Shown here: positions 11,774 through 62,775 of the stretch, piece by piece | How the letters are laid out: every line of letters begins with the position of its first letter | How positions within the stretch are numbered: position 1 is the first letter of the stretch | NCBI GenBank assembly: GCA_036785375.1 | Contig: JAWMAR010000010.1 | Span: forward strand, 6,448,001 to 6,512,000 | DNA length: 64,000 nt | Reading direction: 5' to 3' | Source of the DNA: Leucoraja ocellata | Lineage: Eukaryota | Translations under genes and position numbers: made by a program | The notes under the pieces: model-generated | The model's database searches: none | The model's input: the letters and a program-made list of their open reading frames with translations, nothing else | Told to the model about the DNA's origin: nothing

Positions 11774-14584
11774 TGGAGAATTCCGTTCAAATATCCGTCC
11801 GAATCACTTCACATATTTAAATGACGACTGTGAATGGAGATGCCAGGAATGGTCTTTTGGGACAATTACTGAGGCTTGTTTTAATTGGTCTTGTTGTGTC
11901 CGCAGCAAGCGTGAAGACTGATCCATCCGAGGAAGCTGAGCAGACCAGTGTTCCGACTGCAATATAACCTGCCTCGCAATGAAGTCCGCCGATCCCACCT
12001 GCTTTTGCGGTCTGGCTGATTTTGTCGACCTTTGGTTGTCAATCATATTAATTATCCGACTCGCTTTTAATATTTGTGTAATATAATAAAATGCAGTACT
12101 TCTAGTTCAAAGGAAAGGTTCTGTACACCGAGAGGGTTTGATATCGGGAATATGCTAGTAAACAAAGTGGTGGAAATGAGATACACCAACATGTACGATA
12201 GACGTTTAGACGCATGAACAGGCACTTAATTGGGAAATAGTTGGAAGGATGGGCAAAGTGCTGCAAATTCCCAGTTGGTTAGAAGGGGATAGGGCATGAA
12301 GCGTCACCTATCCACGTCCTACAGAGTTGCTGCCTGATCCACTGACTTACGCAAGCACATCGTGTCTATCTTTGGTAAACACCGGCATCAGCAGTTCCCT
12401 CTTATTACAAGGTGGAAGGATATGGATCTAATTGAGGCCAACGGGATGCATGTACATAGACAAAGATGTTCATATCGACATGTGTGTCCGAAGGCCCAAT
12501 TTCTTCACGGTACAATTCTCTGACCCATTGACTCCAGAAGCATGTCCAAACCTCCCTGCTGTGGCAACCCCTGGAACCTGACTAATCTATTTCGAGTCCT
12601 TTGCTTTGTAGTGCTCTGCTTATAAATCTCAAATGATGCATTTAACACGTAGTGAAGACAGTCTTATTATTAATGCAGTTTGCTTAAATTAAAATATTAA
12701 CAACCTTCGAAGTAAATTTTAATGGAAGTGCGATAAATCGAAAATGCTAATTAAATTCACTTATACAATACATAACTTTAATCTTGAAATAAATATGCTG
12801 TGCATATGTATAAAACTCTCAATATATTTGAATGGGAGAGCAACATGGAACAACGTGTAAAGTGGTCATTAAATTCAGCTATACAATAATTATTTGGTTT
12901 GCTTTAATTTGATGTTTTATTTTAATACAATGACGTTCTGAATTGCTTGTAACATTTCCAAAGGACCATTCGGCCCATTGGAGCCATAGCCACATCGAGC
13001 ATTTGACTCATCTCCACTTATGTTTCTCTGTTACCTGTTATCTTGCACAAATCTCAGTCCATATCCCGCCATTCTTCAGCCAATCACCGTAGCGCTTGAT
13101 CTTGGTTTAGAGATACAGCATGGAAACTCCTTCGGTTCACAGAATCCACGTCCACCATCGATCTCCCGTTCACACGAGTCCCATGTTATCCCATGTACTC
13201 ATCCAGTCGCTATAAACTAAGTGAAATAGACAAAGGCCAATTGATCTACAGGCCCGCACGGTCTTGGGATGTGGGTAGAAGCCGGGTCTCCCGAAGAAAA
13301 TCCTCCCGGTCACAGGCAGAACAGCACAGACAGGAGCTCAGGTTGACAAGTTGATGCCTGCTTTTACAATCATGGAACATGCAAACAGGCCTTTCGGCCC
13401 CAGGTACCATGGGGATACGGAACCCCAGTGTTTAAAGGGAGCGTGGGACCCGTGGCCGGGTTAAAATAAAGGATCACACAAACCCGGGGCCTGTTTGTCA
13501 GAGGTATTACAAACATGCGCGTCTTGGTGTGTTAACAAACTTTGACCCAAAAACTAACAAAGCAAATTCCAATCTAACTCAAATCACTAATCCCGTGTAA
13601 ATCCAGTCACACATGTGCCTGTCCCAACCAGACTTTATGCTTTAGAGATATAGCGTGGATACAGGCCCTGCGGCCCATCACGTCCACGCCGACCAGTGAA
13701 CCCGGTATTAACACTACCCTGCACATCGAAGGAAACCCACGCAGTCACAGGGAGAACATACAAACTCCGTACTGACAGCACGCATAGACAGGATGGAACA
13801 TGGCGCTGTAAGGCAGCAACTCCACTGTTGCTCCACTGTGCCGCCACACACTCTTCTTCAAACTTCTGAAGATGGGTTCAGTGACATTTCCCCCTCTGTC
13901 ACTGGATCGTTCACTTTCTGTCCCATGGACCACAAGCAGCGAACATATGCGACAAAACATCCACCACAATAATTCTCAACACAGGCGTCCCACAAGGATG
14001 TATTGGTATTCCCCTACTATTCTCCCTATAGTCGCGGTTGTGCGGACAAACTCTGCTCTGGATCATCTACCGTTGTAAACCGTTGTAGGGGGACGATAAA
14101 CCGTTGTAGTGGGACGATGTCAAACAATGATGAGATGGTGTACAGGATGGAGATAGAGAGCGTAGTAAAACAAGCCCCCCCGCAATATGGACAACACAAA
14201 TGAGCGGAAGGTTTCCGACTCCACATGTCAGCTACCCACGTCGTCCACAGATGCTGCGTGAGCCGCTGGAAGTAGTTGAGGGCTTCCGGTTCCTTAGAGC
14301 GCATCGCCAATAATGTGGCCTGGACCAACCACACTGAAGCTACAGCCAAAAAGCTGATATTTTACTTCATCGGAGGCTGAAACAAGTACACCATGTCCGC
14401 AATAACAACCCACAGCTGTGGTATGAGCCTGGATGGTTCTGCTTGACATAATGCTGGAGGCTAATGCCATAGTGGTATTCAGGAGGCTTGTGGATAGGCA
14501 GGTGGGTATGCAGGCAATGGAGGGATATGAATTAAGAGCTGGCTGGTTAGAGTAGGTCTTGGCATCGTGTGCAGCACAAACATC

Positions 14585-14840
14585 TAAATCCCATTCTCCC
14601 GCCTTCTCCCCATAACCCATGACACTCGTACTAATTAGAATCTATCAATCTCCGCCTTAAATATATCAATTGAAATTCATCTAGAGGCTTTCTAGAGGTA
14701 CTTGCGTTTATTCTGATGCGAAGGCATCTGGTTCTAGTCTCTCCCACTAGCGGAAACATCCTCTCCACATCCACTCTATTCAAGTATTTCGCTATTCGGT
14801 CAGTCTCAATGAAGTACCCCCTCATCCTTCTAGACTTCCC
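14585..14840 (-). mobile_element. Degraded CR1 3' fragment
   Basis: ORF 14631-14825(-) has LNRVDVERMFPLVGETRTR, matching the CR1 ORF2 C-terminus. Confidence 0.65.
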
Positions 14841-15269
14841 GTTTCCTATTTACCCGCTGTTTTCAGATTATTGAACGATTGTCCCACATACTAAGGTTTA
14901 GTCCCGCGACTAAGGATTAGTCCCGATCTTACAACCTAGCTTTATGTGGGCATATTATCTCGAATTGTAATCCTACAATGCTCTAAAACTATATTCTGCG
15001 CTCTGGTATATTTCTCTCCGAACGACCCATTGCATTTGTATATGGTTTGGTTTTACTTGTTTTCGATGATTTCGTTTGACTGGATAGCACACAAACAAAA
15101 AAACTATTCACGGTGTCTCGGTAGACATTACAATAAAAAACCATATCAACATCTCAATGGCCATTGTTTCTCGACCCCAGTTCTCCTGCCAACCGCCACC
15201 ACGTTTCAGCTCAATCAAAGCCCCTTCCATACTGCCCGCCATTATACTCTACCACCATACTGTCCACTA

Positions 15270-15431
15270 GTCACTGCTATCCCCCGATCGGAGGTTGCAG
15301 GTGGTTGCCGGAGGTTGGTAGTGGAAGCAGGTAGGGAGACTGACAAAAACCTCCGGGAACCTCCGGGAACCGCACGGAAACCTTGGGTGGGGCGCAAAGT
15401 CTCCAGAGGTTTCCGTTCAGGTTTCCTAAGT
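15270..15431. mobile_element. Partial non-autonomous DNA transposon (MITE-like fragment, one end only)
   Basis: Internal repeats ggaggttg and aacctccggg and an end ...gtttccgttcaggtttcctaagt; no partner TIR seen, so family unassigned. Confidence 0.35.
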
Positions 15432-16250
15432 TTGAAAAGAGAAAATGATATATAGTCTTTAACATCTAATCTCGGAGCTGCCTGCGATCACTTACCGAGT
15501 ACATGTGTTCCGATGGCGGGGCCTATGTACTTAACATAGAGAAGCCGCGGTCTCAATTAAGAAGCGGACGATTCGCGAACGCGGAGCCGCGGAGTGTGTT
15601 TGTATCATCTCCGCGCGGCGGCGGGGGGGGGGGGGGGGAGGCTTTACACAGTGCCGTCCGCTATGGCAGTTTCCAGGCTCCGACCACGGGAGAAAAACGG
15701 ATGAATATTCATTGCACTTTAACGGCTGCCATTGGAGTGAGAAATGGCTGATGTTTATGTAGAAATTAATTGGTGTATGTGAACGTGAACTTGATCTAAT
15801 TTATCTATGGTAGTAACAGTGTTATTCTCATTAACATTAAGAAGAGGTTGAAATTTTCTGAATTGAAGTCCATGCAGGCGTAATGACCATGAGATGTTTT
15901 TCTTGTAGCCTCTGCCTGACCCTCCACTTGAACTTGATCTAACTCATCAATGGACTTAGCAAAACTTATCAGAAGACTTGGAATCTGATGAAGAATATTC
16001 AGATGAAGATCAGATGTAATGTAAACAAATAAATTGGGGAAATAAATGATTATATAACGTTTTATTTTAGTGTCGATCGTTTCACTGTTTAGTTGGTCAA
16101 ATTATTTAAACAATAAGTGAATTACGTATGATCATGGCATGCTGGTGAATGACAGTGCAACAGTCCACCCACTCATCCACACATACATATACACATCCAC
16201 ACACACATATCCATCCGTACGTGCACTTCCATGCATGCACACACATACAT

Positions 16251-16251
<1 letters not shown>

Positions 16252-16293
<42 letters not shown>
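16252..16293. repeat. (CA)n microsatellite; shorter variants at ~44388-44426 and ~62744-62771
   Basis: Direct reading. Confidence 0.95.
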
Positions 16294-16297
<4 letters not shown>

Positions 16298-16299
16298 GT

Positions 16300-16340
16300 G
16301 GGCCTGATGTGCCCCGCGGGCCATATTTTGGAGACTCCTG
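16300..16340 (-). mobile_element. hAT (Charlie-like) terminal fragment
   Basis: Reverse complement reads caggagtctccaaaatatggcccgcggg, a typical CAG-start hAT terminus with the ggcccgcggg subterminal motif. Confidence 0.55.
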
Positions 16341-16529
16341 CCTTACATGAACTAAACAAAAATGTAAAGAAGTACAAACATTGATGACTTTATTATTGTG
16401 ATAAGTATAGATCTATTTAAAACAATCTAATAACTTTCTAATGTACGGACAAAGTCTACCTTCCCAAGTGGCGTATCTTGTTCCGCTCCATGTCTGTGCC
16501 GCCGCTGCTGAAACTAGCTAACGTGGAGG

Positions 16530-17083
16530 GAGAGTGAGGTAGCGTCAATTACGTCAATACGTAATTGACGGTCGCTCTTCCTCCACTGGGCTCAAGACAC
16601 GCCCCCTTGTGAGGCAGATGTGATCGCTGCCTCCCCTGGAGCTTTGTCAATGCAGATTTATGTGAGACCAGCGAGCACAAATTTAATATCTTTATATGTG
16701 AAATACGTTACATGGACTATAGAAGGTAAGGACATGTAATGAAGGGGTTTACAAACATTACTTTTGTGACATGCATGGAGATGGTAACAGGCACACGCTT
16801 ATTGCCCGCGCTCCATGCAGTTTCTAAGGGGTAGCGCAATCAGTTTGCCGCTGCCTCACCTCCCATCTCTCCATGTATTTGCAGCGGAGCTGCGCAAATT
16901 TGGCGATTTTTACTATAAAAAAAGATTATATTAATATAGAAATGACATTTATAACAGTGGAAAAATCTTTAAATTTATTTTATTTTATTATTATTTTTCT
17001 TTACTTTACTTAACAGCTATTTTCATTGGGAGTATGACAAGTGAGGCTCTGCCTCCCTTGCCTCCCCTGTGGGCACGTCCCTG
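16530..17083 (-). mobile_element. hAT-like DNA transposon remnant
   Basis: Reverse-complement terminus cagggacgtgcccacaggggaggcaagggaggcagagcctca and recurrent gaggca/tgcctc subterminal motifs; the other end is not defined. Confidence 0.45.
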
Positions 17084-19964
17084 AAAACAAGAAAACACGC
17101 TTAGCTAGAGTAGAAAAAGTGAAATATGGGCCGGAATGAAATCTTTCAATAATCTCCAAGATACCGCCCTCTGCAAAGAGCGGTGTTCGCCATCTGCTCC
17201 AAGGAGCAGACGACTGGAGCTGTCCCTGTATAGTGATCCCCGTGACACAAAACCATCTCCTCCCCACCCTACTCCGGTGTCAGAGCGATGGGGATCATTT
17301 TAGCTTGTACCCTGTGTCTCTGTATATGCCCAGAGTACGGCTCACACACTTCCACATTGTTCCGGTTTAGTGTAAATTTGTCCCAGGCTATTTTTTAAAT
17401 GAACTTGAATCACCATCCGAGTTCAGTTGCTCGCCTCTGATGCCCATTCATCTCTCCCAGTGTATAATCGCCAGGCGTCTTCAGGCAATCGGTGACCCAG
17501 AGTCCGACAGGGGTGACCGGGCAGTGTGTCAGCCCTTTACGATCTCCTGCCACTTTCGGATTTGTTCGCTAAGTTCATACCGTTTTAACTCTGGACCCGT
17601 GTTCTAACAGACCCAGCCCGTGGAAGAGCTGCAGCGGATCATCGTGGGGGGACCGTGTGTCGTATCGACCAATAAAGCGGACATGACCTCTACGCTGGAA
17701 ATTCGGGACATGAGAGTTTGTGATTGCGCCAACTATCAATGTCAAGTTGCAGATAACTGGACCGTATGGGGTTTGGATATGCACATTGGAATGGAAGGGC
17801 GCATTTAAACGCTATATGATCAGAATCGGCCATCAGAATTAAAGGATTGTTGTACAGGTATTAGTAACCTTGCTATCAAGTTCAATTTCATTGTAATTTT
17901 CTCTTTCTAAGTTATTTAACTGCCGTTTGGTTCGGACTTTCCTGATATTAACCGTGTCTAAACCATTTTATTAACCCATTGAGAGCTCCGTTCCTCAATG
18001 GGAACAAAATCATCCACTAGGCGTTTGGGAAACACGGAATATTATTTGTTCTTCTGAAGCACTGGAATAATTGGGCAGCGTTTCCTGTTGCTTTCCGGGT
18101 AAAATGGGGTGAGGACTTTCTTTTACCGGGCTGGATCACTGTGTATGACTGCCATGCTTACTATAGAAATGGAGCGGGGGCAAGCATGATTTTCACGCCG
18201 GAAAGCATCCTAAAAGCGCTCTTTATATCCATTGCCCAGGAATAATCAGTGTAGTCGAAAATTGGGATCGTGTGACATCAATGTCCGTGTAAGTGAAGCA
18301 ACCCCAATTTCTAAATTCATCTTGAACAATGGCCCATGGCAGAGGGCGACAGGTCTGGTGTGAGATCCGAGACAGCAGACTGGTGCACTTCTGAATCAGA
18401 AGGGTTGTGGATTTTGATGGACAATAAATGACAGACTTGTCAGCCATGCACGCATACCAGTAAATGGATAACATAAACGGAGCACCAGAGTGTTGGGGTG
18501 CACACTGATGTGCGTCGCAAGTGTTAATGAACAGAAAATGATGGGCTTATACGAGTTCCCCAGATGGGGTTGTTTGGGGAACGGGGAAGACATACCGACT
18601 CTGAACGTTCTCAAATCCAAGAGATTTCTGATGTGAGGGGTGTCCAATGCGGAACGGTTTTAGGATGGGTCCACGTGCTCTATGAGTGTGAGAATACCAG
18701 ATGCAATCTCTTTATTGTTTACAATCCACAGAGCAAAGTTGATAGGGCAGACGCTGAGCTGTGCGTTAGTCGGAAATCCCCGCGAAAACAGCACAGACTC
18801 AAAGCAACCGACAACTGAGTGCGGGAATAGTTTTCAGGAGGGGAAAATATGAACTGTAGGAAGCGAGAGGCGAGGGGGGATGTACAACGGGATCTGAGGG
18901 ACCTTGTTCATCAGTCAATGAAAGTAAGCATGCAGGTACAACAGGCAGTGAAGAAAGCGAATGGCGCGTTGGTCTTCGTAACAAGAGAAGTTGAGTACAA
19001 TACTTAAATACTTCAACAATAAGAACAAACGTTTCCTGACATTTGTAGCGAACAGAATCTCTGTTTGATCGGACATGGGGGTAGAAGTGTCATCCTGTCA
19101 AAACTTTGGACTTTTGTGTTTTGGACTATATACTGGGTATCATGCCTGATGTTAAGGGTTTTAAGCGTACAGTACTAAGAATAAGAATAACGTTTTAATA
19201 AGACGAATAACCAAGTTATGCTTGCTTCTAGAACGCGAAGGTGAAGATGGAAGAATAGCTAAAGAATTCTGAATGCTGATATATCATGGATGCTATTTTT
19301 TGATTTTTGAAATATGTTAATGTTTTATTGCTACCTTTTCAAATATATTGCTACCTTTTTTAATAAATTTTATTAATTGCCTCGTTATATACTCAGAACA
19401 ATTAGGGACCGATATGTAGTAGTCATTTAGCTAAACTCAGTATGTTATAACTAGAATTAGTTACCTTTAACTTTTATCTGCCTGTGTGGGTGGGGTTTTT
19501 CACGGTTGGAGCGGTGTTTGCGGCTGGGAATCTGGCACAGACGTTATAGTAATTATAGTTTAGTTTAGTTTTAAGAAGCATGGGAAGAGGTCACAGTTTG
19601 AACCATGCACGAGTTCCACCATGCGCGAATTTGACAACGAGTAAGATCAAAATGTATTTAAACAAGAAGACATGGATGAATATCTACTGTTTTACTACTG
19701 CAATAAAGGAACTATTAATTAAGAGGCTGTGTTTGGGAGATTTATCATTCAACGGCATTAAATATATCGTGGAGCGCTCACCAATGCGTTTCGATTATCC
19801 CCTGAATCCCTGGCTTCAATCAAAGTGACTACAGTAAATATGACCACTCAGAAGAGCGTTTCTACTTCATTTTTCAACGGGGCCTACTAGAAACACCTGG
19901 AACGAAAAGGAAAATGGGTAGATTAGGTCAGTGTATGGGAACTGTAGCTCAAAGTCTCAAAAAA

Positions 19965-20100
19965 AACTAAAGATAGACACAAAAAGCTGAAAAAGGTCTC
20001 GACTCGAAACGCCACCCATTCCGTCTCTCCGGAGATGCTGCCTGTCCCTCTGAGTTATTCCAAATGTCTGTGTCTACCTTCGGTTTAAAACGGTATTTGC
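19965..20100 (+). mobile_element. Short Penelope-LTR-like repeat with a degenerate minimal hammerhead motif; absent from unit B
   Basis: ctgaaaaaggtctcgactcgaaacgccacccattccgtctctccggagatgctgcctgtccc; related, more decayed copies at ~1590-1700 and ~12280-12390. Confidence 0.45.
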
Positions 20101-20468
20101 AATTCTTCATACACACTCCACATCAATGATTTCATCGTATCGTGCGTTGTGACTGATATTTTGTCCGACCTTTCGACAGCTGCAACCTCGTGGAACATAT
20201 TTACATTTCGAAATATTATTAGCAAACCTACTTTACAGTTGGTTTGTTCCGTTCGTGATGAATTGGTACATGTGCAATGAACGACTACCCTCGTGATTGT
20301 TGTCGTATAACATCACACGGGAGCAAAATCCGTAATGAATGTCCACAGGGAGGTAATCTCAATAACTCGTTAATCTTTTCCTTGGCTTATAAATGTTCAG
20401 TGGTTTAACCTCCCACTATAACATCTGTAAGCTTTGTACTTCGTTTGCGAGGTCGCTGTGAAGGAGAA

Positions 20469-20538
20469 ATGGGTCGCCTGCAACACTTGCCGGTTGAATA
20501 TTACTATTACCCAATCCTGGCATCAATTGGGGTGCCGG
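20469..20538 (+). CDS. GPR139/GPR142-like GPCR, coding exon 1 (N-terminus and first half of TM1)
   Basis: ATG at 20469 gives MGRLQHLPVEYYYYPILASIGVP plus G, then donor |gtatgt (phase 1). YYPILAxIGVP is the TM1 signature of this family. Not shown in this frame in the ORF track. Confidence 0.9.
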
Positions 20539-20754
20539 GTATGTCACTTGACGGTTACATGTGGGATGGGCTGGACGACATTTGATTGGGAAACGGCAAC
20601 GATGAAAATAAAGTGAAAATACTGTGACAAAATGTGCTAAATGCTGAGTTGCACCATGGAACGGGGTTTGGGGAATAACCTGAATGTATTTATTTCATCG
20701 TTTGCCGTTTACTGGGACTGGTATAAAATTGTTCTTGTATTATTGTTTAGAGTC

Positions 20755-21090
20755 GTCGAGTCAAGAGTCAATAGTGTTTTATTGTCAAATGTCCCGGACG
20801 GGACAATGAAATTCTTAACTGCTGCTATACCTAACAGAATATGTGAATGTGTGATCATTGTATATAATGAGGAAGAAATAAAAAGTTCAATGACTAATAA
20901 ATATAGTGCACATAGCAAATAATAATATAGTATTTTGCTGTTCAGAGCTCACAGCTTATTCGTTGCGTTTAATAGCCTGATGGCCGTGGGTAAATAGCTG
21001 TTGCTAAACCTGGACGTTACAGTCTTCAGGCGCCTTTAACTTCTGCCTGATGGCAGTGGTGAGATAAGTGTGTGGCTAGGATGGTGTTTC
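20755..21090 (-). mobile_element. Old LINE (Rex/L2-type) 3' end inside the GPCR intron
   Basis: gagtcaagagtc tail repeats next to tttattgtc (reverse-strand AATAAA) and cttctgcctgatggcag-type ORF2-end remnants. Confidence 0.5.
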
Positions 21091-21295
21091 TCTGTTGATT
21101 CATTCACTGTTAGGTGGAATGTTTATTCGTGAGCGTAGTGTCAGGGATCGCATTCAAAACAAAGGAATCCCCGTCCATCACATCCATTTCACAATTTTAG
21201 GAAAGTAATCAAAATATTAATATACAGCCACCCATCACTCAACTGGAAGTTATTCTGTCCATATAATCACCATTGCTTCTTTCTTACTCCATTAG

Positions 21296-22206
21296 TGAAT
21301 CTACTGGCGATTGTGGTCCTGTCCCGAGGAAAGTGCGGTCTCTCCAAATGCATCACTCGTTATCTGGTGGCTATGGCGACGGCGGACCTCACGGTGATTG
21401 TCTGCGAAGTGATTTTAAATCGGATTGTAGTTCTTTATTGGCGGAACACAATCCTGTTCTACACTCCTGTGTGCAGGTGTATTCTCTTCCTGTCCGCAGC
21501 GGCCGTAGACTGTTCCGTGTGGTTCACGGTCGCTTTCACATTTGATAGGTTTGTGGCCATCTCCAAACCGAATCTGAGATCCAGATACTGCACCGAAAGA
21601 ACCGCGGCGGTGGTTATGGTGACCCTATGTGCCTTCTTCTGTTTACAGAACGTTCCCTGGCCTTTCGCTTATAATTCTTTCGACAGGTGGAATGGTTTAC
21701 TGTGGGGCTGCCGAATCCGATCGGACTTCTATTACCTGCCCGCATGGATCGCATTTTCTTGGATTGAGCCGCTGTTGACCCCAGTGATTCCATTCTGTTT
21801 GATTTTGTTCTTTAATGCGCACACGGCGAGACGTATTTTAATGGCCAATCGGGTCCGCAGGAGGCTCCGCGATCTCAGTCGTGGAGACCCGGAGACAGAA
21901 AGCCGTAAACGGTCAATAATTTTACTCTTTGCAATTTCCAGCAGCTTCATCCTGCTCTGGGTCACAACTGTATCTCATTTTGTTTACTATCAATGTGTCA
22001 ACGGATTTTGGGGGCGAGGTTTGTCAAACGCATTTGCAAAATTTGAAAAAATTGGAGTTCTGCTGCAGCTGCTGAACACGTGTACAAACACACTGATTTA
22101 CACCGTCACCCAGGGGAAGTTCAGAGAGCAGCTCCTTCACGCACTTCAATGGCCCGTCGCGTTAATTGGAAAGTTAGTGAAACCTATCAAATGGTGTTTA
22201 AAATGA
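21296..22206 (+). CDS. Probable G-protein-coupled receptor 139-like (class A 7TM), coding exon 2; spliced protein 326 aa, intact
   Basis: Acceptor ttgcttctttcttactccattag| at 21295; the G+TG junction gives GVPVNLLAIVVLSRGKCGLSKCITRYLVAMATADL. TM3 FTFDRFVAI, ECL2 Cys, TM7 NTCTNTLIY; 70+911=981 nt. Confidence 0.93.
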
Positions 22207-23789
22207 CATCAGGTAACACGTCACTCGAGTGTTACATTATGGATCTCTGGTGAAGAGAGGGCATTGAACGAAAATCTCACCTATCTTTCAAAAAACATTT
22301 AAAAAAATGTCACTCACATTCGGCTAAAACAATAATATCCCCGCACATGACAGCGTAGAGCGGTTTTGGCAGCCCCACCGGTCCCCAGGCCCGCCCCCTG
22401 CCCTTTAAATTGAACACCGCCGATTTCCGGGTAGGGCGAACGGCGGGTCCCGATGTTCACTTCTACTGGAGCAACGCCCGGTATTTCCAGTTGAAAAATC
22501 TGCGACATCTCTGATTTCCTTTCAATCCAGCAGCCGCCCTATTCGGCTCTAAATGCAAAACCTTTAAGTTTCCCGATGCGTTCCATGTCCTTCGCACTTG
22601 AATTCTTACTCATATGGGTGCCCAAGTCACAACTTTACTTGATGACATTAACGTAGAGTGCGTCTCCCACATTCCAGCGGCAACGTTCAACTGAACGGGA
22701 GTTTCATTGTATTCTTTGTTCCCTTTCCACAGAACCCGTTATTCCCATTTAGAGCCGCTTTCGGATTACATTGCACTAATTAACTAAACACTAGATGAAA
22801 GTAACGAGAATTGCTGATATTCATACAAGCCAGTGTAGATACATAATCTATATTTTTAGATAAAGGAGATATTGACAGTCTACAGATTTTACCGCGGTAA
22901 TTTGCATATATATGATTGATATGCAGAAGATCTGACGGTTTGTGCACCTAAATGTCCCATCTGCCATGTAGAGATTGGCTCTCTCGCTGTCTCTTCTCTG
23001 CTGAATGGATACTGGCTGGTTATATAACCCATTCTTCAAATATCTTTGCAGTATTACACGTTACATCTGAACATTCAAATTCACGAACCACATGTGGACC
23101 AGATTGACGAATCCTGACAGAGCCTCACGACATTCACATAACACCTGGAAAAAAATGACGCGTGGTTCTGTGAGGTATTGTCAGCATTTTGCCAGTGACA
23201 CCGGGCGAGTTATCTTCCCACAGTCACGATTGTTTTATTATCCTCTGTTCTAAAGCGGAACAACGAAGAATGTACTCGCAGCACCACAACAGCCAAGTAA
23301 ACATCATACTGTGCAAAAGTTCCATTATCCGAGGATATGACAGCCCCGCCATCCCGGGAATTAACCTGGGAAACTTACGCTACACTCCGTCAATAGCAAG
23401 AATGTCCTTCCTCAAATTAGGGGACATGTAATGTCATAACTCCTTTAATGGAGTTATATTGTAAATGCTTCATTATCAAGAGTTTTTTCCAATGTGCTCC
23501 ACGAGATGCTGATTTATATTAAACCGTGACATCGGGAAGGGAGCTGTCGCTCTCGGTGAATATGTTCCAGATTCGTTGTTCGTTCGTTTTGACATGCTCT
23601 CCAAGGTCCCGTTAAACAGCTCGCAGAACTAATGTTACATAGGAATTAAATGCCCATGACAGACATATGACTTTTTCTCTTGTTATCAACTAAACAAATA
23701 TGTGTTATTGAAGGTAATGGTTATATTGTGATCAATCTCTTTATCCCAGGAGGTTGCAGGCAGTTCCTTGTGACATAGGAAAACGAATT

Positions 23790-24800
23790 TACGATGCCAA
23801 ACTTCATTAACTTCACAACTAATTTCCATCCCGCACAGAATTCACTTGGGCCAATTCCGATATCTCCCGACCGTTTCTTCTTCTCACCGTCTCTATCACG
23901 GGAGATAGACTATCGACGGGCATCTACTATAAACCTACTTACTCCCACAGCTATCTTGACTACCTTTCTTCCCACTCTGCCTCCTGTAAAGACTCTATCC
24001 CCTACTCCGAATATCTCCGTCTGCACCGCAGCTGCGCCCACGTTTAAGTGTTCCATACCATGACATCTGAGATGTACTCATTCTCTATTCACCAGGGTTC
24101 ACCTCTTACATTATAGATTAGGCCCTCACTGAGGTCTTCTCGATATCCCGCAGCTCTGCCCTTGCTCCCCACCCCAGACGCAACAGGGACAGTATCGCCC
24201 AGTCCGCACATTTCACCCCATCAGCCATCGTACAAGCATATGATCCTCCGATATTTCCGCCACCTCTAACGAGATCCTACCACGAGCGATATCTTCCCAT
24301 CTTCAACCCTATCCGTTTTCCGCAGAGACCGGTTCCTCCGAAACTCACTGGTTAACATGTCCTTCCCGTTAATAATCTAGCTTCCTAGCTACTTTCCCCT
24401 GCAACCGCGGGAGCTACAACCCCTGTCCCTATACCTCCTCCGTCCCAGGACTCGGACATTCTTTTCGGGTGAGGCAGAGATTCACATGCATCTCCTCCAA
24501 CCTCATCTACAGTGTCCGCTGTTCCAGGTGTTGGCTCCTATATGTGGGCGACTACAAGCGAAGGCTCTGTGTTCGTTTCGCTGAACACCTTATCTCAGTC
24601 CGCCTGGAACTGCCCGATCTCCCGCTTGCCAAATGCTTTAATTCCCCTTCCCATTCCCACACTAACGTTTGGCTCCTAGGCCGCCTCCATTGTCAGAGCG
24701 AGGCCATACACGAATTGGAGGACCAGCATCTCATATTTCGCTTAGACAGCTTACAACCCAGTAGTATGAAAATTGATTTCTCCCACTTCAAGTAACCTCT
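23790..24800 (+). mobile_element. Penelope-like element fragment (decayed RT C-terminus plus GIY-YIG endonuclease)
   Basis: ORF 24469-24795 NLIYSVRCSRCWLLYVGDYKRRLCVRFAEH matches the PLE GIY-YIG pattern; upstream frames are broken. Confidence 0.85.
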
Positions 24801-24919
24801 GCATTCTCTCTCCCTCTCTCCATCTCTCCCCCACCTAAGTCGCAGTTTATTCCAAATCATCTTCTTCAGTCTCATAGTCTACAAGTCGTACAAACCTAAG
24901 AAACTTTTTTACATATCTT

Positions 24920-25610
24920 AGAAACACAAAAACATAGAACAATAGGTGCAGGTGTAGGCGATTCGGCTCCGTCAGCCAATATGATGACTGCAGATCATCT
25001 AAAATCAGTACCCCGTTCCTGATTTTTACACATATCCTAGATTCCTATTGCTCTAAGAGCACAATCTCTTTTGAAAACTTCGAGTGAATTGACCTCCACT
25101 CCCTGTGGCAGATAATTCCACAGGATCACAACTAACTGGATGAAAATATTTGTCCTCATCCCGGTCCTAAGTGGGCTCTCCTTATTCTAAAATTGGGACC
25201 TCTAGTTTTGGACTTCATCAACATCGGGAACATTTTACATGCATGCAACCTGTCCAATCATTTAACAAGGTTATATAGTTCTATAAGATCGCCTTCCATC
25301 CTTGTAATCTCCAGGAAATACAAGCCCAGTTCACCCATTATTTTGTCATATGTCAGTCCCGCCATACCCGGAATTGACCCCACAGCCACTTGCCCCTGTA
25401 CTCATCCTCTCGCAATGAAGGCCAACATGCCATTAGATTTCATCACTGCCTGCTGTACATGCACGCTCACGTTCAATGACGGATGGACAAGCACACCCAG
25501 GTTTTGTTGCACCTCCACTTTTCAAAATCTGACAACATAACGATAGTAACCTCGTCCAAATCCTTAATATATATTGTAAATAACTGGGTCCCAGCACCAG
25601 TACCCCACTA
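24920..25610 (-). mobile_element. Old degraded CR1 3' fragment, repeated in each triplication unit and in unit B
   Basis: catagaa tail next to aataggtgcagg. The homologue in unit B translates as [15 protein letters not shown] (ORF 55022-55279). Confidence 0.75.
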
Positions 25611-26074
25611 GTCCCTGCATTCTTTCATTCGTCTATTCTATATGTCCCAACATCACCGTCTGGATATGTCGGTTCCATTTCTCCTCGCTCTCCTGTCAGA
25701 AGCACACTGCGAACCTGATCAAGTTCAGTGCCATTGTTTCCTCGCTGATCTTCTGCACATAGACGTTAGAGAAATAGTGTAGAAACAGGCCATTTGGTCC
25801 ACTGAGGTGGTATCCAGGTGGAGTACTGGTGCTGGGACCCAGTTATTTACAATATATATTAAGGATTTGAGCGAGGTTACTATCGTTATGGTGTCAGATT
25901 TGGGAAAGGGGAGGTGCAACGTAACCTGGGTACACTGGGTCGTACCCAGCGTTCACTTCGTACACTTACACTGTCCTACACACTTGGAACAATGTTAAAT
26001 TTACAGATATCAATTATCTACCAACCTGTACATATTTGGAAGGCATTGGAATGGAATGGAATGATTTATTGGCA

Positions 26075-27179
26075 CATATAACCATATAACCATATAACAA
26101 TTACAGCACGGAAACAGGCCATCTCGGCCCTACAAGTCCATGCCCAACAAATTCTTTTCCCCCTTAGTCCCACCTGCCTGCACTCATACCATAACCCTCC
26201 ATTCCCTTCTCATCCATATGCCTATCCAATTTATTTTTAAATGATACCAATGAACCTGCCTCCACCACTTCCACTGGGAGCTCATTCCACACCGCCACCA
26301 CTCTCTGCGCAAAGAAGTTCCCCCTCATATTACCCCTAAATTTCTGTCCCTTAATTCTGAAGTCATGTCCTCTTTTTTGAATCTTCCCTATTCTCAAAGG
26401 GAAAAGCTTGTCCACATCAACTCTGTCTATCCCTCTCATCATTTTAAAGACCTCTATCAGGTCCCCCCTTAACCTTCTGCGCTCCAGAGAATAAAGACCT
26501 AACTTATTCAACCTATCTCTGTAACTTAGTTGTTGAAACGCAGGCAACATTCTAGTAAATCTCCTCTGTACTCTCTCTATTTTGTTGACATCCTTCCTAT
26601 AATTGGGCGACCAAAATTGTACACCATACTCCAGATTTGGTCTCAGCAATGCCTTGTACAATTTTAACATTACATCCCAGCTTCTATACTCAATGCTCTG
26701 ATTTATAAAGGCTAGCATACCAAAAGCTTTCTTTACCACCCTATCTATATGAGATTCCACCTTCAAGGAACTATGAACGGTTATACCCAGATCCCTCTGT
26801 TCAACTGTATTCTTCAATTCCCTACCATTTACCATGTACGTCCTATTTTGATTTGTCCTGCCAAGGTGTAGCACCTCACATTTATCAGCATTAAACTCCA
26901 TCTGCCATCTTTCAGCCCATTTTTCCAAATGGCCTAAATCACTCTGTAGACTTTGGAAATCCTCTTCATTATCCACAACACCCCCTATCTTGGTATCATC
27001 TGCATACTTACTAATCCAATTTACCACACCTTCATCCAGATCATTGATGTACATGACAAACAACAAAGGACCCAACACAGATCCCTGAGGCACCACACTA
27101 GTCACCTGCCTCCAACCGGATAAACATCCATCCACCATTACCCTCTGGCTTCTCCCATTCAGCCACTGTTGAATCCATC
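26075..27179 (-). mobile_element. 5'-truncated CR1 LINE with open RT ORF (324 aa)
   Basis: ORF 26164-27138 has PQGSVLGP, YADD, RPNLEYGVQFW; (taaccata)n tail. Confidence 0.95.
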
Positions 27180-28476
27180 AACATGGATTTGTGCCTGGAA
27201 GGTCTTGTTTAACTAATCTTCTTGAATTTTTTGAAGATGTTACACGGGAAATTGATGAGGATAACGCAGTGGATGTTGTGTATATGGACTTCAGTAAGGC
27301 CTTTGACAAGGTTCCTCATGGAAGGTTGGTTAAGAAGGTTCAATGGTTGGTTATTAATGGTGGAGTAGCAAGATGGATTCAACAGTGGCTGAATGGGAGA
27401 TGCCAGAGAGTAATGGTGGATGGTTGTTTGTCAGGTTGGAGGCCAGTGACGAGTGGGGTGCCACAGGGATCTGTGTTGGGTCCACTGTTTTTTGTCATGT
27501 ACATCAATGATCTGGATGATGGTGTGGTAAATTGGATTAGTAAGTATGCAGATGATACTAAGATAGGTGGGGTTGCGGGTAATGAAGTAGAGTTTCAAAG
27601 TCTACAGAGAGATTTATGCCAGTTGGAAGAGTGGGCTGAAAGATGGCAGATGGAGTTTAATGCTGATAAGTGTGAGGTGCTACATCTTGGCAGGACAAAT
27701 CAAAATAGGACGTACATGGTAAATGGTAGGGAATTGAAGAATGTAGGTGAACAGAGGGATCTGGGAATAACTGTGCACAGTTCCCTGAAAGTGGAATCTC
27801 ATGTAGATAGGGTGGTAAAGAAAGCTTTTGGTGTGCTGGCCTTAATAAATCAGAGCATTGAGTATAGAAGTTGGGATGTAATGTTAAAATTGTACAAGGC
27901 ATTGGTGAGGCCAATTCTGGAGTATGGTGTACAATTTTGGTCTCCTAATTATAGGAAGGATGTCAACAAAATAGAGAGAGTACAGAGGAGATTTACTAGA
28001 ATGTTGCCTGGGTTTCAGCAACTAAGTTACAGAGAAAGGTTAAACAAGTTAGGGCTTTATTCTTTGGAGCGCAGAAGGTTAAGGGGGGACGATAGAGGTT
28101 TTTAAAATGATGAGAGGGATAGACAGAGTTGACGTGGAAAAGCTTTTCCCACTGAGAGTAGGGAAGATTCAAACAAGGGGACATGACATGAGAATTAAGG
28201 GACTGAAGTTTAGGGGTAACATGAGGGGGAACTTCTTTACTCAGAGAGTGGTAGCTGTGTGGAATGAGCTTCCAGTGAAGGTGGTGGAGGCAGGTTCGTT
28301 TTTATCATTTAAAAATAAATTGGATAGTTATATGGATGGGAAGGGAATGGAGGGTTATGGTCTGAGCGCAGGTATATGGGACTAGGGGAGATTATGTGTT
28401 CGGCACGGACTAGAAGGGTCGAGATGGCCTGTTTCCGTGCTGTAATTCTTATATGGTTATTATATGATTATATGGT
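27178..28476 (+). mobile_element. 5'-truncated CR1 LINE with a frameshift near 28090; head-to-head with the preceding copy
   Basis: ORFs 27191-28105 and 28107-28385 have GRSCLTNL, DFSKAFDKVPH, YADD; tatatggt-type tail. Confidence 0.95.
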
Positions 28477-28551
28477 AATATACGTGACCCATGTTAAGTT
28501 AATCACCTGTTTCGCATATTGATGTCCACCTCAAATGATGTTGTCAAACGC

Positions 28552-28835
28552 TGACAGGAGGAGGAATACAGGAACTTGACCAGTGCCTTCTGTGCCTGGA
28601 GTGAAGAGAACTGTCACATCCTGAACACAACTAAGACTAAAGAGACGGGTGTTAACTTTGGCAGGTCCAAGCTCCCCCTTCAGCCGGTCAACGCTGCTGG
28701 GGCTGACATTGAGGTGGTGCAGACATATAAATACTTTGGAGTGCACCTTGATAACAAATTGGACTGGTCTGTCAACTCTGACTCCCTCTACAAAAAAGGC
28801 CAGAGCAGACTCTCTTTCCTCAGAAGGCTCAAACC
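28552..28835 (+). mobile_element. Rex/Babar fragment cut by the triplication junction (also 33688-33971)
   Basis: Matches the start of the Rex copy at 38734 up to ggctcaaacc. Confidence 0.85.
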
Positions 28836-29846
28836 TACGATGCCGAACTTCATTAACTTCACAACTAATTTCCATCCCGCACAGAATTCACTTGGGCCAA
28901 TTCCGATATCTCCCGACCGTTTCTTCTTCTCACCGTCTCTATCACGGGAGATAGACTATCGACGGGCATCTACTATAAACCTACTTACTCCCACAGCTAT
29001 CTTGACTACATTTCTTCCCACTCTGCCTCCTGTAAAGACTCTATCCCCTACTCCGAATATCTCCGTCTGCACCGCAGCTGCGCCCACGTTTAAGTGTTCC
29101 ATACCATGACATCTGAGATGTACTCATTCTCTATTCACCAGGGTTCACCTCTTACATTATAGATTAGGCCCTCACTGAGGTCTTCTCGATATCCCGCAGC
29201 TCTGCCCTTGCTCCCCACCCCAGACGCAACAGGGACAGTATCGCCCAGTCCGCACATTTCACCCCATCAGCCATCGTACAAGCATATGATCCTCCGATAT
29301 TTCCGCCACCTCTAACGAGATCCTACCACGAGCGATATCTTCCCATCTTCAACCCTATCCGTTTTCCGCAGAGACCGGTTCCTCCGAAACTCACTGGTTA
29401 ACATGTCCTTCCCGTTAATAATCTAGCTTCCTAGCTACTTTCCCCTGCAACCGCGGGAGCTACAACCCCTGCCCCTATACCTCCTCCGTCCCAGGACTCG
29501 GACATTCTTTTCGGGTGAGGCAGAGATTCACATGCATCTCCTCCAACCTCATCTACAGTGTCCGCTGTTCCAGGTGTTGGCTCCTATATGTGGGCGACTA
29601 CAAGCGAAGGCTCTGTGTTCGTTTCGCTGAACACCTTATCTCAGTCCGCCTGGAACTGCCCGATCTCCCGCTTGCCAAATACTTTAATTCCCCTTCCCAT
29701 TCCCACACTAACGTTTGGCTCCTAGGCCGCCTCCATTGTCAGAGCGAGGCCATACACGAATTGGAGGACCAGCATCTCATATTTCGCTTAGACAGCTTAC
29801 AACCCAGCAGTATGAAAATTGATTTCTCCCACTTCAAGTAACCTCT
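28836..29846 (+). mobile_element. Penelope-like fragment, copy 2
   Basis: GIY-YIG ORF 29515-29841. Confidence 0.85.
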
Positions 29847-38658: not shown

Positions 38659-38733
38659 AATATACGTGACCCATGTTAAGTTAATCACCTGTTTCGCATA
38701 TTGATGTCCACCTCAAATGATGTTGTCAAACGC

Positions 38734-39782: not shown

Positions 39783-42700
39783 TGGAGAATTCCGTTCAAA
39801 TATCCGTCCGAATCACTTCACATATTTAAATGACGGCTGTGAATGGAGATGCCAGGAATGGTCTTGTGGTATAATTACTGAGGCTTGTTTTAATTGGTCT
39901 TGTTGTATCCGCAGCAAGCGTGAAGACTGATCCATCCGTGGAAGCTGAGCAGACCAGTGTTCCGACTGCAATATAACCTGCCTCGCAATGAAGTCAGCCG
40001 ATCCCACCTGCTTTTGCGGTCCGGCTGATTTTGTCGACCTTTGGTTGTCAATCATACTAATTATCCGACTCGCTTAATATAATAAAATGCAGTACTTCTA
40101 GTTCAAAGGAAAGGTTCTGTACACCGAGAGGGTTTGATATCGGGATTATGCTAGGAAACAAAGTGGTGGAAATGAGATACAACAACATATACAATAGACG
40201 TTTAGACGCATGAACAAGCCCTTAATTCGGAAATAGTTGGAAGGATGGGCAAAGTGCTGCAAATTCCCAGTTGGTTAGAAGGGGACCGGGCATGAAGCGT
40301 CACCTATCCACGTCCTACAGAGTTGCTGCCTGATCCACTGACTTGCGCAAGCACATCGTGTCTATCTTTGGTAAACACCGGCATCAGCAGTTCCCTCTTA
40401 TTACAAGTTGGAAGGATATGGATCTAATTGAGGCCAACGGGATGCATGTACATAGACAAAGATGTTCATATCGACATGTGTGTCCGAAGGCCCAATTTCT
40501 TCACTGTACAATTCTCTGACCCATTGACTCCAGAAGCATGTCCAAACCTCCCTGCTGTGGCAACCCCTGGATCCTGACTAATTTATTTCTAGTCCCTTTC
40601 TTCGTAGTGCTCTGCTTATTAAATCTCAAATAATGCATTTAACACGTAGTGAAGACAATCTTATAATTAATGCAGTTTGCTTAAATTAAAATATTAACAA
40701 CCTTCGAAGTAAATTTTAATGGAAGTGCGATAAATCGAAAATGCTAATTAAATTCACTTATACAATGCATAACTTTAATCTTGAATTCAATATGCTGTGT
40801 ATATATGTATAAAACTCTCAATATATTTGAATGGGAGAGCAACATGGAACAACGTGTAAAGTGGTCATTAAATTCAGCTATACAATAATTATTCGATTTG
40901 CTTTATTTTTGTATTAATACAATGACGTTCTGAATTGCTTGTAACCTTTCCAAAGGACCATTCGGCCCATTGGGTCCATGGCCACATCGAGCATTTGACT
41001 CATCTCCACCTGTTTCTCTGTTACCTGTTATCTTGCACAAATCTCAGTCCATTTCCCCGCCATTCTCCAGCCAATCACCGTAGCGCTTGATCTTGGTTTA
41101 GAGATACAGCATGGAAACTCCTTCGGTTCACAGAATCCACGTCCACCATCGATCTCCCGTTCACACGAGCCCTATGTTATCCTATTTACTCATCCACCTC
41201 GCTGTACACTAGGTGAAATAGACAAAGGCCAATTGATCTACAGGCCCGCACGGTCTTGGGATGTGGTAGAAGCCGGGTCTCCCGGAGAAAATCCTCCCGG
41301 TCACGGGCAGAACAGCACAGACAGGAGCTCAGGTTGACAAGTTGGTGCCTGATTTTACAATCATGGAACATGCAAACAGGCCTTTCGGCCCCACTCGTTG
41401 ATGTTGCCCAAGATGCCCCACCTAATTTGGACCCATTTGCCTGCGTTTGACGCATTATCCTTCTAAATATGTTCTACCCATTGACCCATCAATCACTCAC
41501 CCTTTCATATATTAGTCGTTTGTGTTTCCCAGGCTGAGCAGGTACTATGGGAATACGGAACCCTAGTGTTTAAAGGGAGCGTGGGACCCGTACCCGGTTA
41601 AAATAAAGGAACACACAAACCCGGGGCCTGTTTGTCAGAGGTATTACAAAAATGTGGGTCTTGGTGTGTTAACAAACTTTGACCTCTAAACGAAACAAAG
41701 CAAATTCCCAATCAAACTCAAATCACTAATCCCGTGTAAATCCAGTCACACATGTGCCTGTCCCAACCAGACCTTATGCTTTAGAGATATAGCGTGGATA
41801 CAGGCCCTGCGGCCCATCGCGTCCCCGCCGACCAGTGAACCCGGTATTAGCACTATCCTGCACATCGGAGGAAACTAACTCGGTCACAGGGAGAACATAC
41901 AAACTCCGTACTGACAGCACGCATAGTCAGGATGGAACGTGTCGCTGTAAGGCAGCAACTCCACTGTTGCTCCACTGTGCCGCCTCAAACTCTTCTTCAA
42001 ACTTCCGTAGATGCAGTGACATTCCCCCCTCTGTCACTGGATCGTTCACTTTCTGACCCATGGACCACAAGCAGCGAACATAGGCGACAAAATATGCTCC
42101 ACAATAATTCTCAACACAGGCGTCCCACAAGGATGTATTGGTATTCCCTACTATTCTCCCCATAGTCGCGGTTGTGCGGACAAACTCTGCTCTGGATCAT
42201 CTACCGTTGTAAACCGTTGTTGGGGGACGATAAACCGTTGTAGTGGGACGATGTCAAACAATGATGAGATGGTGTACAGAATGGAGATAGAGAGCGTAGT
42301 AAAACAAGCCCCCCCCCCCCCCCCCCCCCCCCCCCCCGCAATATGAACAACACAAATGAGCGGAAGGTTTCCGACTCGACATGTCAGCTATCCACGTCGT
42401 CCACAGATGCTGCATGAGCCGCTGGAAGTAGTTGAGGGATTTCGGTTCCTTAGAGAGCATCGCCAGTAATGTGGCCTGGACCAACCACACTGAAGCTACA
42501 GCCAAAAAGCTGATATTTTACTTCCTCGGAGGCTGAAACAAGTACACCATGTCCGCAATAACAACCCACAGGGTGGTATGAGCCTGGATGGTTCTGCTTG
42601 GCATAATGCTGGAGGCTAATGCCATAGTGGTATTCAGGAGGCTTGTGGATAGGCAGGTGGGTATGCAGGCAATGGAGGGATATGAATTAAGAGCTGGCTG

Positions 42701-44386
42701 GTTAGAGTAGGTCTTGGCATCGTGTGCAGCACAAACATCTAAATCCCATTCTCCCGCCTTCTCCCCATAACCCACGACACTCGTACTAATTAGAATCTAT
42801 CAATCTCCGCCTTCAATATATCAATTGAAATTCATCTAGAGGCTTTCTAGAGGTACTTGCGTTTATTCTGATGCGAAGGCATCTGGTTCTAGTCTCTCCC
42901 ACTAGCGGAAACATCCTCTCCACATCCACTCTATTCAAGTATTTCGCTATTCGGTCAGTCTCAATGAAGTACCCCCTCATCCTTCTAGACTTCCCGTTTC
43001 CTATTTACCCGCTGTTTTCAGATTGTTGAACGATTGTCCCACATACTAAGGTTTAGTCCCGCGACTAAGGGTTAGTCCCGATCTTACAACCTAGCTTTAT
43101 GTGGGCATATTATCTGGAATTGTAATCCTACAATGCTCTAAAACTATATTCTGCGCTCTGGTATATTTCTCTCCGAACGACCCATTGCATTTATATATGG
43201 CTTGGTTTTACTTGTTTTCGATGATTTCGTTTGACTGGATAGCACACAAACAAAAAACTATTCACGGTATCTCGGTAGACATTACAATAAAAAACCATAT
43301 CAACATCTCAATGGCCATTGTTTCTCGACCCCAGTTCTCCTGCCAACCGCCACCACGTTTCAGCTCAATCAAAGCCCCTTCCATACTGCCCGCCATTATA
43401 CTCTACCACCATACTGTCCACCAGTCACTGCTATCCCCCGATCGGAGGTTGCAGGTGGTTGCCGGAGGTTGCAGGTAGTGGAAGCAGGTAGGGAGACTGA
43501 CAAAAACCTCCGGGAACCGCACGGAAACCTTGGGTGGGGCGCAAATTCTCCAGAGGTTTCCGTTCAGGTTTCCTAAGTTTGAAAAGAGAAAATGATATAT
43601 AGTCTTTAACATCTAATCTCGGAGCTGCCTGCGATCACTTACCGAGTACAAGTGTTCCGATGGCGGGGCCTATGTACTTAACATAGAGAAGCCGCAGTCT
43701 CAATTAAGAAGCGGACGATTCGCGAACGCGGAGCCGCGGAGTGTGTTTGTATCATCTCCGCGCGGCAGGGGGGGGGGGGGGGGGGGGGAGGCTTTACACA
43801 GTGCTGTCCGCTATGGCAGTTTCCAGGCTCCGACCACGGGAGAAAAACGGATGAATATTCATTGCACTTTAACGGCTGCCATTTGAGTGAGAAATGGCTG
43901 ATGTTTATGTAGAAATTAATTGGTGTATGTGAACGTGAACTTGATCTAATTTATCTATGGTAGTAACAGTGTTATTCTCATTAACATTAAGAAGAGGTTG
44001 AAAATTTCTGAATTGAAGTCCATGCAGACTTAATGACCATGAGATGTTTTTCTTGTAGCCTCTGCCTGATCCTCCACTTGAACTTGATCTAACTTATCAA
44101 TGGACTTAGCAAAACTTATCAAAAGACTTGGAATCTGATGAAGAATATTCAGATGAAGATCAGATGTAATGTAAACAAATAAATTGGGGAAATAAATGAT
44201 TATATAAAGTTTTATTTTAGTGTCGATCGTTTCACTGTTTAGTTGGTTAAATTATTTAAACAATGAGTGAATTACGTATGATCATGGCATGCTGGTGAAT
44301 GACAGTGCAACAGTCCACCCACTCATCCACACATACATATACACATCCACACACACATATCCATCCGTACGTGCACTTCCATGCAT

Positions 44387-44428
<42 letters not shown>

Positions 44429-44728
44429 GTGGTGGGCCTGATGTGCCCCGCGGGCCATATTTTGGAGACTCCTGCCTTACATGAACTAAACGAAAATGTA
44501 AAGAAGTACAAACATTGATGACTTTATTGTTGTGATAAGTATAGATCTATTTAAAACAATCTAATAACTTTCTAATGTACGGACAAAGTCTACCTTCCCA
44601 AGTGGCGTATCTTGTTCCGCTCCATGTCTGTGCCGCCGCTGCTGAAACTAGCTAACGTGGAGGGAGAGTGAGGTAGCGTCAATTACGTCAATACGTAATT
44701 GACGGTCGCTCTTCCTCCACTGGGCTCA

Positions 44729-45499
44729 TAGAAACATAGAAACATAGAAATTAGGTGCAGGAGTAGGCCATTCGGCCCTACGAGCCTGCACCGCCATTCA
44801 ATATGATCATGGCTGATCATCCAACTCAGTACCCCGTACCTGCCTTCTCTCCATACCCTCTGATCCCCTTGGCCACAAGGGCCACATCTAACTCCCTCTT
44901 AAATATAGCCAATGAACTGGCCTCAACTACCCTCTGTGGCAGAGAGTTCCAGAGATTCACCACTCTCTATGTGAAACAAGTTCTCCTCATCTCGGTTCTA
45001 AAGGATTTCCCCCTTATCCTTAAGCTGTGACCCCTTGTCCTGGACTTCCCCAACATCGGGAACAATCTTCCTGCATCTAGCCTGTCCAACCCCTTAAGAA
45101 TTTTGTAAGTTTCTATAAGATCCCCTCTCAATCTCCTAAATTCTAGAGAGTATAAACCAAGTCTATCCAGTCTTTCTTCATAAGACAGTCCTGACATCCC
45201 AGGAATCAGTCTGGTGAACCTTCTCTGCACTCCCTCTATGGCAATAATGCCCTTCCTCAGATTTGGAGACCAAAACTGCACGCAATACTCCAGGTGTGGT
45301 CTCACCAAGACCCTGTACAACTGCAGTAGAACCTCCCTGCTCCTATACTCAAATCCTCTTGCTATGAAAGCCAACATACCATTTGCTTTCTTTACTGCCT
45401 GCTGCACCTGCATGCCTACCTTCAATGACTGGTGTGCCATGACACCCAGGTCTCGCTGTATCTCCCCCTTTCCCAATCGGCCACCATTTAGATAATAAT
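44729..45499 (-). mobile_element. Young 5'-truncated CR1 insertion specific to unit B, with 6-bp TSD GGCTCA
   Basis: TSD at 44723-44728 and 45500-45505; (catagaaa)n tail; ORF 44967-45506(-) has [13 protein letters not shown]. Empty site ctgggctcaagacac in units A (~16590) and C (~63068). Confidence 0.95.
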
Positions 45500-58211: not shown

Positions 58212-58286
58212 AATATACGTAACCCATGTTAAGTTGATCACCTGTTTCGCATATTGATGTCCACCTCAAATGATGTTGTCAAACGC

Positions 58287-62743: not shown

Positions 62744-62775
<32 letters not shown>

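Follow-up and report, generated by a model that had tools for sequence, protein, structure and literature searches.

The locus described here raises the question of why two tandemly arranged copies of one receptor gene differ by amino-acid replacements in their extracellular loops, and whether such replacements were favoured by selection, tolerated under relaxed constraint or accumulated after the death of one copy. We analysed a stretch of 64,000 nucleotides from Leucoraja ocellata (contig JAWMAR010000010.1, positions 6,448,001 to 6,512,000; the whole stretch is referred to as the window), for which a preliminary description had proposed diversifying selection on the ligand-entry face of a receptor repertoire. 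The explanation that we favour, and regard as rather probable, is that of a receptor repertoire which evolves by birth and death, is diversified by selection and is reshuffled through gene conversion.

Self-BLAST resolved the window into duplicated units about 95-97% alike, together with an inverted piece at positions 1-2199. Each of the first two units carries a two-exon GPCR gene (copies A and B), and tblastn retrieved no third gene copy within the 64-kb window. The units of copies A and B differ at 412 of 15568 aligned non-coding bases (rate 0.0265). The features referred to throughout are the following:

11774..28842, no strand assigned: duplicated unit with copy A (self-BLAST)
39783..58578, no strand assigned: duplicated unit with copy B (self-BLAST)
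59290..64000, no strand assigned: third unit, start only, the window ending before the place of the gene (self-BLAST)
20469..20538, + strand: copy A exon 1, with the ATG, a short N-terminus and the first part of TM1 (tblastn with the Amblyraja relative P0001)
20539..21295, + strand: copy A intron, with 24 of 757 bases differing from copy B
21296..22206, + strand: copy A exon 2, which with exon 1 encodes an intact 326-residue class A GPCR
21670..21741, + strand: copy A ECL2, codons 149-172, a hairpin with Cys162; 6 amino-acid differences to copy B
21988..22035, + strand: copy A top of TM6, ECL3 and top of TM7, codons 255-270
22156..22245, + strand: cytoplasmic tail and start of the 3' flank, the strongest divergence peak between the copies
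49636..49705, + strand: copy B exon 1
50466..51365, + strand: copy B exon 2, broken, with a stop at 50831-50833 after 145 residues

A phase-1 GT donor directly follows copy A exon 1, and a high-copy repeat lies inside the intron at approximately 20755-21130. Five assembly gaps interrupt the window (2204-2350, 5139-5338, 11646-11773, 39562-39782 and 59105-59289); since several of them coincide with the edges of duplicated units, it is uncertain how many units there are and how they are ordered. Positions 23790-39017 hold a unit of about 5.1 kb three times head-to-tail at 99.3-99.7% identity, each copy with inverted LINE reverse-transcriptase pieces, which would represent either amplification in the very recent past or a duplication introduced by the assembly. 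On the other side of copy A, an immunoglobulin V-set exon with AG and GT ends (8291-8706, + strand; PF07686, E 4.7e-9) sits between the inverted repeats 2351-5138 and 8860-11645, and may indicate an immune-type gene next to the GPCR units.

By profile and motifs, copy A is assigned to the class A (rhodopsin-like) GPCRs: it matches PF00001 (7tm_1) with E 7.5e-20 and 71.9 bits (cut-off 30.5). Its closest proteins are two of Amblyraja radiata with 91 and 89% identity, and the limits of the receptor regions were taken from the predicted model of P0001 (91% identical, same numbering, pLDDT 85.5). This model has seven helices plus helix 8, and D2.50, DRx, C3.25 with the ECL2 cysteine, P5.50, W6.48 and NxxxY are present (conserved columns D54, C83, D107-R108, C162, P189, W245, N288 and Y292), P6.50 and P7.50 being missing from the receptor.

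Thirty-two of the 319 codons compared differ between copies A and B, 10 of them purely synonymously and 22 with a change of amino acid (11 of these are extracellular, 8 fall in the cytoplasmic tail at codons 314-325 and the remaining 3 affect helices or helix 8). The preliminary description had read the start of exon 2 as carrying only three silent differences, and codons 24-120 indeed differ at 26, 32 and 80 alone, all synonymously. Its count of seven amino-acid changes and one synonymous change in ECL2 and the top of TM5 is likewise reproduced (D153Y, L158S, L159Q, R165L, S166L, Y170F and I180M; codon 171 synonymous), as are the changes in ECL3 (Y255N, Q256R, A269P and F270Y). ECL1 shows no amino-acid change between the copies and none of the differences lies deep in the pocket. 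Non-synonymous differences occupy 11 of 146 extracellular sites versus 3 of 543 sites in the core, i.e. helices, cytoplasmic loops and helix 8 (Fisher P = 6e-6). The wider statement that the differences are almost all non-synonymous and extracellular, however, goes too far, given the 10 synonymous codons and the 8 of 22 amino-acid changes that fall in the tail. The tail is in fact the most divergent part of the pair (9/38), 6 of the next 39 bases of the 3' flank differ as well, and the end of the intron forms another peak, with 8 of the 24 intron differences within its last 95 bases. Divergence peaks therefore arise also away from the ligand face, and the two copies have to be seen as a patchwork. 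The peak over the tail and 3' flank is probably a tract from another paralog; the tail type of copy A is also found in record 22 of a skate sequencing run (X3). The observation is thus real but overstated, and the pair by itself is modest, suggestive evidence only.

The core of the pair is constrained, with a pN/pS of 0.14 (3/543 non-synonymous versus 7/177 synonymous; P = 0.003). For the loops, the verdict on neutrality hinges on the yardstick: they exceed the non-coding background of 0.0265 (10/94 non-synonymous in ECL2 and ECL3, P = 2e-4; P = 0.002 over the extracellular sites as a whole) but do not significantly exceed the synonymous rate of the gene itself, 13/231 (P = 0.05-0.09 and P = 0.19-0.30, respectively). 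This synonymous rate is about twice the non-coding rate, without being explained by CpG, which occurs at 2 of the 10 synonymous codons. Inside the loops pN/pS is 0.8-1.6 and non-significant. Among non-coding windows of 72 bases, 2 of 211 show the 8 or more differences seen in ECL2, and among those of 48 bases 19 of 319 show the 4 or more differences of ECL3. The proposal of diversifying selection on the ligand side consequently draws its support from data outside the pair, the pair being indecisive in this respect. A single conversion tract as the source of all loop differences is ruled out by the two separate loops that differ, and a patchwork of tracts is likely.

Copy B raises a further concern, as 11 bases are missing from its ICL2 (copy A 21588-21604; copy B approximately 50757-50764) and its stop falls before ECL2, upstream of all the cited loop changes, in a window with 5 gaps and near-identical repeats. 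The loop differences could then be post-death drift of copy B or assembly errors, and the preliminary description had allowed for changes arising after pseudogenisation. However, with the two Amblyraja proteins as outgroup, the changes at 153, 170, 180, 256, 269 and 270, five of them in loops and the other at I180, fall on intact copy A. The changes assigned to copy B are also loop-biased, affecting 5 of 146 extracellular versus 1 of 543 core sites (P = 0.002; 3/543 core sites in the worst case, P = 0.013), and the copy B residues Y153, R256, P269 and Y270 recur in contigs of other skate runs. We therefore consider drift after death, or error, a very improbable origin of the loop differences. 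Changes in a long-dead gene would be evenly spread; the uneven ones of copy B imply that the frameshift is recent, or else an assembly error. In the alignment the loss is split into three short gaps flanking two ACC triplets; it is no homopolymer slip, and would resemble a repair scar more than a sequencing slip. The deletion is absent among the 12 of 25 indels listed in the runs that resemble other skates.

Copy A was further compared with contigs of three DNA runs, 40 of the 280 differences being listed. The strongest indication from DNA that the rate exceeds neutrality comes from one collapsed contig, record 6 of run X1, which differs from copy A at 13 of 289 bases (12 listed). Ten of these differences lie in codons 255-270 and amount to 9.5 non-synonymous changes over 37.7 sites in ECL3, as compared with 0 over 178.7 non-synonymous sites and 2 synonymous changes outside ECL3 among the 12 of 13 differences listed. 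Synonymous changes total 2.5-3.5 of 69, at most 1.5 of them in ECL3, and the resulting ECL3 pN/pS ratio amounts to 4.9-6.9 (P = 0.0005-0.004) relative to copy A and 4.1-5.7 (P = 0.003-0.017) relative to copy B, these ranges allowing for the one unlisted difference. In amino acids, copy A differs from the related-skate contig at 8 of codons 255-270 and from copy B at 4, and three of the record 6 changes are common to the comparison of copies A and B. Codon 263 specifies four residues (G, V, M and I) among the skate runs, the window and Amblyraja, and variants at 261, 266, 267, 269 and 270 recur in varied combinations across species, which indicates that old variants have been shuffled. About 17 of the 20 distinct loop changes in skates are non-synonymous (P = 0.35 versus neutral). 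In run X3, 9 of 769 flank bases depart from copy A, yet every contig compared departs from it at 5 ECL3 sites (P = 8e-5); this excess was kept out of the main evidence because the records may stem from different paralogs. Divergence peaks of this kind are left when selection keeps a small region distinct under conversion (PMC3924837, available part).

Between 21377 and 21513, contigs of more distant paralogs match to either side of the segment formed by the top of TM2, ECL1 and the top of TM3 but do not span it; this is another variable patch, invisible in the pair. Related skates also carry a sister paralog about 10% diverged (records 5 and 21). Contig depth was 355 for record 6 and 22-24 for three others, a hint of many copies, depth itself being no copy number. 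In an RNA run of unspecified tissue (X22, of which about 6% was read), depth reached at most 9.8 on the start of exon 2, with no reads on ECL2 or ECL3; those on exon 2 are mostly less than 90% alike and continue unlike the stretch, and were taken as other family members with no bearing on this gene.

The same regions stand out among close paralogs, for which 17 groups (111 proteins) were used, namely the Amblyraja pair plus 16 clusters with 5-12 members each. The clusters were picked as large ones among the top matches, leaving out two short fragments and one single and one two-member cluster, and the groups are not fully independent. Changes per site were 0.204 in ECL2, 0.227 in ECL3 and 0.127 in ECL1, and 0.084 in helices, 0.081 in cytoplasmic parts and 0.105 in ICL3; extracellular loops changed faster than helices in 14 of the 17 groups and faster than cytoplasmic loops in 13. 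In 12 of the 17, pocket positions changed more than the rest of the helices (P = 0.07). The most changed sites were 87 (3.29), 153, 163 and 263, and the sites variable in skates were not hotter than other loop sites in the shark groups (P = 0.35).

A control was provided by the nearest well-sampled relative, a low-copy GPR139-like orphan (Latimeria P0263; 26-27% identity), by counting changes on trees for 98 of the best 120 family matches (P0042 and 21 sequences of at least 389 residues having been set aside) and for 93 of the relative's 120 proteins (length 300-375). As proteins only were used, the comparison yields no dN/dS, and it sets paralogs against orthologs. The 27 pocket positions are those that we assume from class A consensus contacts, rather than positions measured on the model; nearly fixed polar residues at many of them in the control support this list. 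Pocket positions change 2.33 times as fast as other helix positions in the family (98 members; P = 5e-7) versus 0.60 times in the control (93 members; P = 0.01), the pocket being polar and conserved in the orphan and variable in the skate and shark family. Relative to other helix positions, the values for family and control are 2.50 and 2.21 in ECL2, 2.89 and 1.90 in ECL3, and 0.39-1.03 and 0.91-1.74 in cytoplasmic loops. ECL2 is thus variable in both sets and by itself weak evidence, and we did not accept this as a demonstration of selection. The family is distinguished rather by a pocket that varies while the signalling face is tightly constrained. Positions 3.29, 3.32, 3.33, 6.51 and 7.39 rank with the most variable ones, having changed 28-42 times each when other helix positions averaged 9.4 changes, and D occupies 3.37 in 87 of the 98 members and D or E occupies 5.42 in 76.

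These data bear on two further explanations. According to one, constraint is relaxed and conversion makes a patchwork without positive selection, redundant copies drifting and tracts of older paralogs producing the peaks. The peaks in the tail, the 3' flank and the intron end fit this explanation, as do the within-loop ratios not above neutral, the variable ECL2 of the low-copy control, the 10% diverged sister paralog as a possible donor and the several loop variants common to the Amblyraja proteins, hence old. It does not fit, however, the ECL3 of record 6, where non-synonymous changes run at 4-7 times the local synonymous rate, nor the scarcity of non-coding windows matching ECL2, nor a signalling face that is tighter than in the control; and old loop variants amid homogenised flanks are what selection against conversion predicts in the available part of PMC3924837. 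Relaxation with patchwork conversion is in our opinion unlikely, and we infer that positive selection, not relaxation, drives the excess in loops and pocket. Selection could also act for escape, a pathogen or toxin binding the outer loops of a receptor with a constant ligand, since close skate copies change at the exposed rim and not in the deep pocket and ECL3 changes fast. Yet the high variability of the inward positions listed above fits changed ligands, and some 100 copies are unneeded for escape, which makes this variant quite improbable.

Birth and death in tandem duplicons, the evolutionary mode put forward in the preliminary description, is supported by the duplicated blocks, the one broken copy and the large family. 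A protein search recovered 1498 clusters at E <= 1e-10 among 2719 candidates; among the best 120 of these clusters, the 118 that carry a name all belong to cartilaginous fishes, one of them a chimaera. Heptranchias leads 38 of the best 120, representing 101 sequences, some of which may be alleles or isoforms, and an exhaustive search gave 107 representatives (50% identity, E up to 1e-30), a good number of which are fragments. In the tree with P0001 the family clade has a support of 89/90, or 100/99 without the outlier P0233, which places copies A and B by sequence in a chondrichthyan expansion labelled 'probable GPR139'. The next relatives, at 26-29%, are a salamander group, the low-copy jawed-vertebrate receptor and amphioxus proteins. 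The salamander group (P0271, P0364 and P0367) branches, with weak support (85/89), as sister to the shark family and may be a surviving bony-vertebrate ortholog. The low-copy receptor forms a separate clade (100/100) which occurs in sharks themselves, mostly with one or two listed entries per species; it was found in sharks, bony fishes, amphibians and reptiles (P0263, P0373-P0490), mammals and birds being absent from the 120 matches listed. Two of its entries are named TMEM183A isoforms, which suggests a neighbouring gene, and we presume that the orphan is perhaps GPR210A/B. Extra subtypes similar to GPR139/142 have been described in bony fishes and the coelacanth, the available part of that source making no mention of cartilaginous fishes (PMC6504862).

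GPR139 is the best sequence match among solved structures (E 3.4e-9). Nevertheless, identity in the structural alignment is 20-21% and the fold match is no better than to peptide receptors, a fold search returning generic peptide-receptor matches only. The preliminary description had linked the copies to the sensing of aromatic amino acids. GPR139 is activated by Trp and Phe, with F3x33, H5x43, W6x48 and N7x38 as key residues (PMC5430874, in its accessible portion). Only W6.48 of these four is kept, P0001 having A91 for F3.33, E181 for H5.42/43 and V278 for N7.38/39, besides T248 for R6.51. With the mammalian orphans GPR139 and GPR142 the family has W6.48 and the database name of its members in common, whereas C3.25, present in the skate receptor, is missing from the GPR139 chain in the structure alignment, and many copies per genome are a feature of the skate and shark family. 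Orthology to GPR139 was discarded on the identity and pocket residues, and the link to Trp/Phe sensing finds no support. As human GPR139 is more distant than the other relatives, 'probable GPR139' is a default annotation and a misleading name. Language-model features and predicted structure group the family with GPR139, FMRFamide-receptor-like and Srw receptors in one broad branch.

Under the birth-and-death explanation, copies A and B are recent tandem duplicates, the copies of the family being born in segmental duplications, and some would die, as copy B recently did. Purifying selection would keep the G-protein face and the helix core. Diversification would concern the pocket and its rim (tops of TM2, TM3, TM6 and TM7, ECL3 and parts of ECL2), where short tracts would be exchanged between copies by gene conversion and point mutation would add variation. 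Members would be working receptors with a common coupling face, in which selection retains differences that change specificity. The acidic residues at 3.37 and 5.42 would form a shared anchor for a positive charge, each copy binding a different set of ligands. In teleost TAARs, Asp5.42 anchors a positively charged group (PMC4695389, available part), and by analogy it is tempting to speculate, from weak indications, that the members probably bind amines or basic peptides. Concerning a putative role, sensing of outside chemicals is a possibility we rate a little short of even, immune or barrier sensing is doubtful, and a response to endogenous or reproductive peptides is more doubtful still.

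Repertoire families such as OR, TAAR, V1R/ORA, FPR and MRGPR form tandem clusters, evolve by birth and death and combine a variable pocket with a conserved signalling face. The skate family resembles them in its tandem copies, dead copies and variable pocket, but is of separate origin, in the peptide-receptor-like branch, and has D3.37 instead of D3.32; acidic 5.42 it has in common with non-classical teleost TAARs (PMC4695389, same part). Lymnaea has about 450 FMRFamide-receptor-like GPCRs according to the available part of PMC11589774; such invertebrate expansions are alike in belonging to the same broad branch and in being lineage-specific, whereas the skate family is, in a small tree, an independent vertebrate expansion. 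No description of the family was found in the literature searched, most subscription papers lying outside its reach, nor any literature pairing GPR139 with elasmobranchs, chondrichthyans or skates. A survey of tandem clusters in two batoids does not name it in the available main text (10.1101/2025.06.08.657570), and the figures or supplements of that work and of PMC11979771 could list it. This repertoire-type GPCR family of cartilaginous fishes is thus apparently undescribed.

In the available text of PMC6368271, cartilaginous fishes have few OR, TAAR and V1R genes, and the catshark has 65 olfactory and taste chemosensory genes. The idea that sharks, rays and chimaeras own an undescribed chemosensory GPCR family, descended from the GPR139/FMRFamide-receptor-like branch and concealed by automatic annotation, with at least 100 genes in some genomes, is advanced here only tentatively. 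If true, that family would outnumber the known olfactory and taste repertoire of the catshark, and amines or basic peptides would possibly be detected through acidic 3.37 and 5.42. The label 'probable GPR139' misleads in the genomes of cartilaginous fishes, and a family with a diversified pocket that is missing from the inventories is a candidate for their missing sensory or immune recognition capacity.
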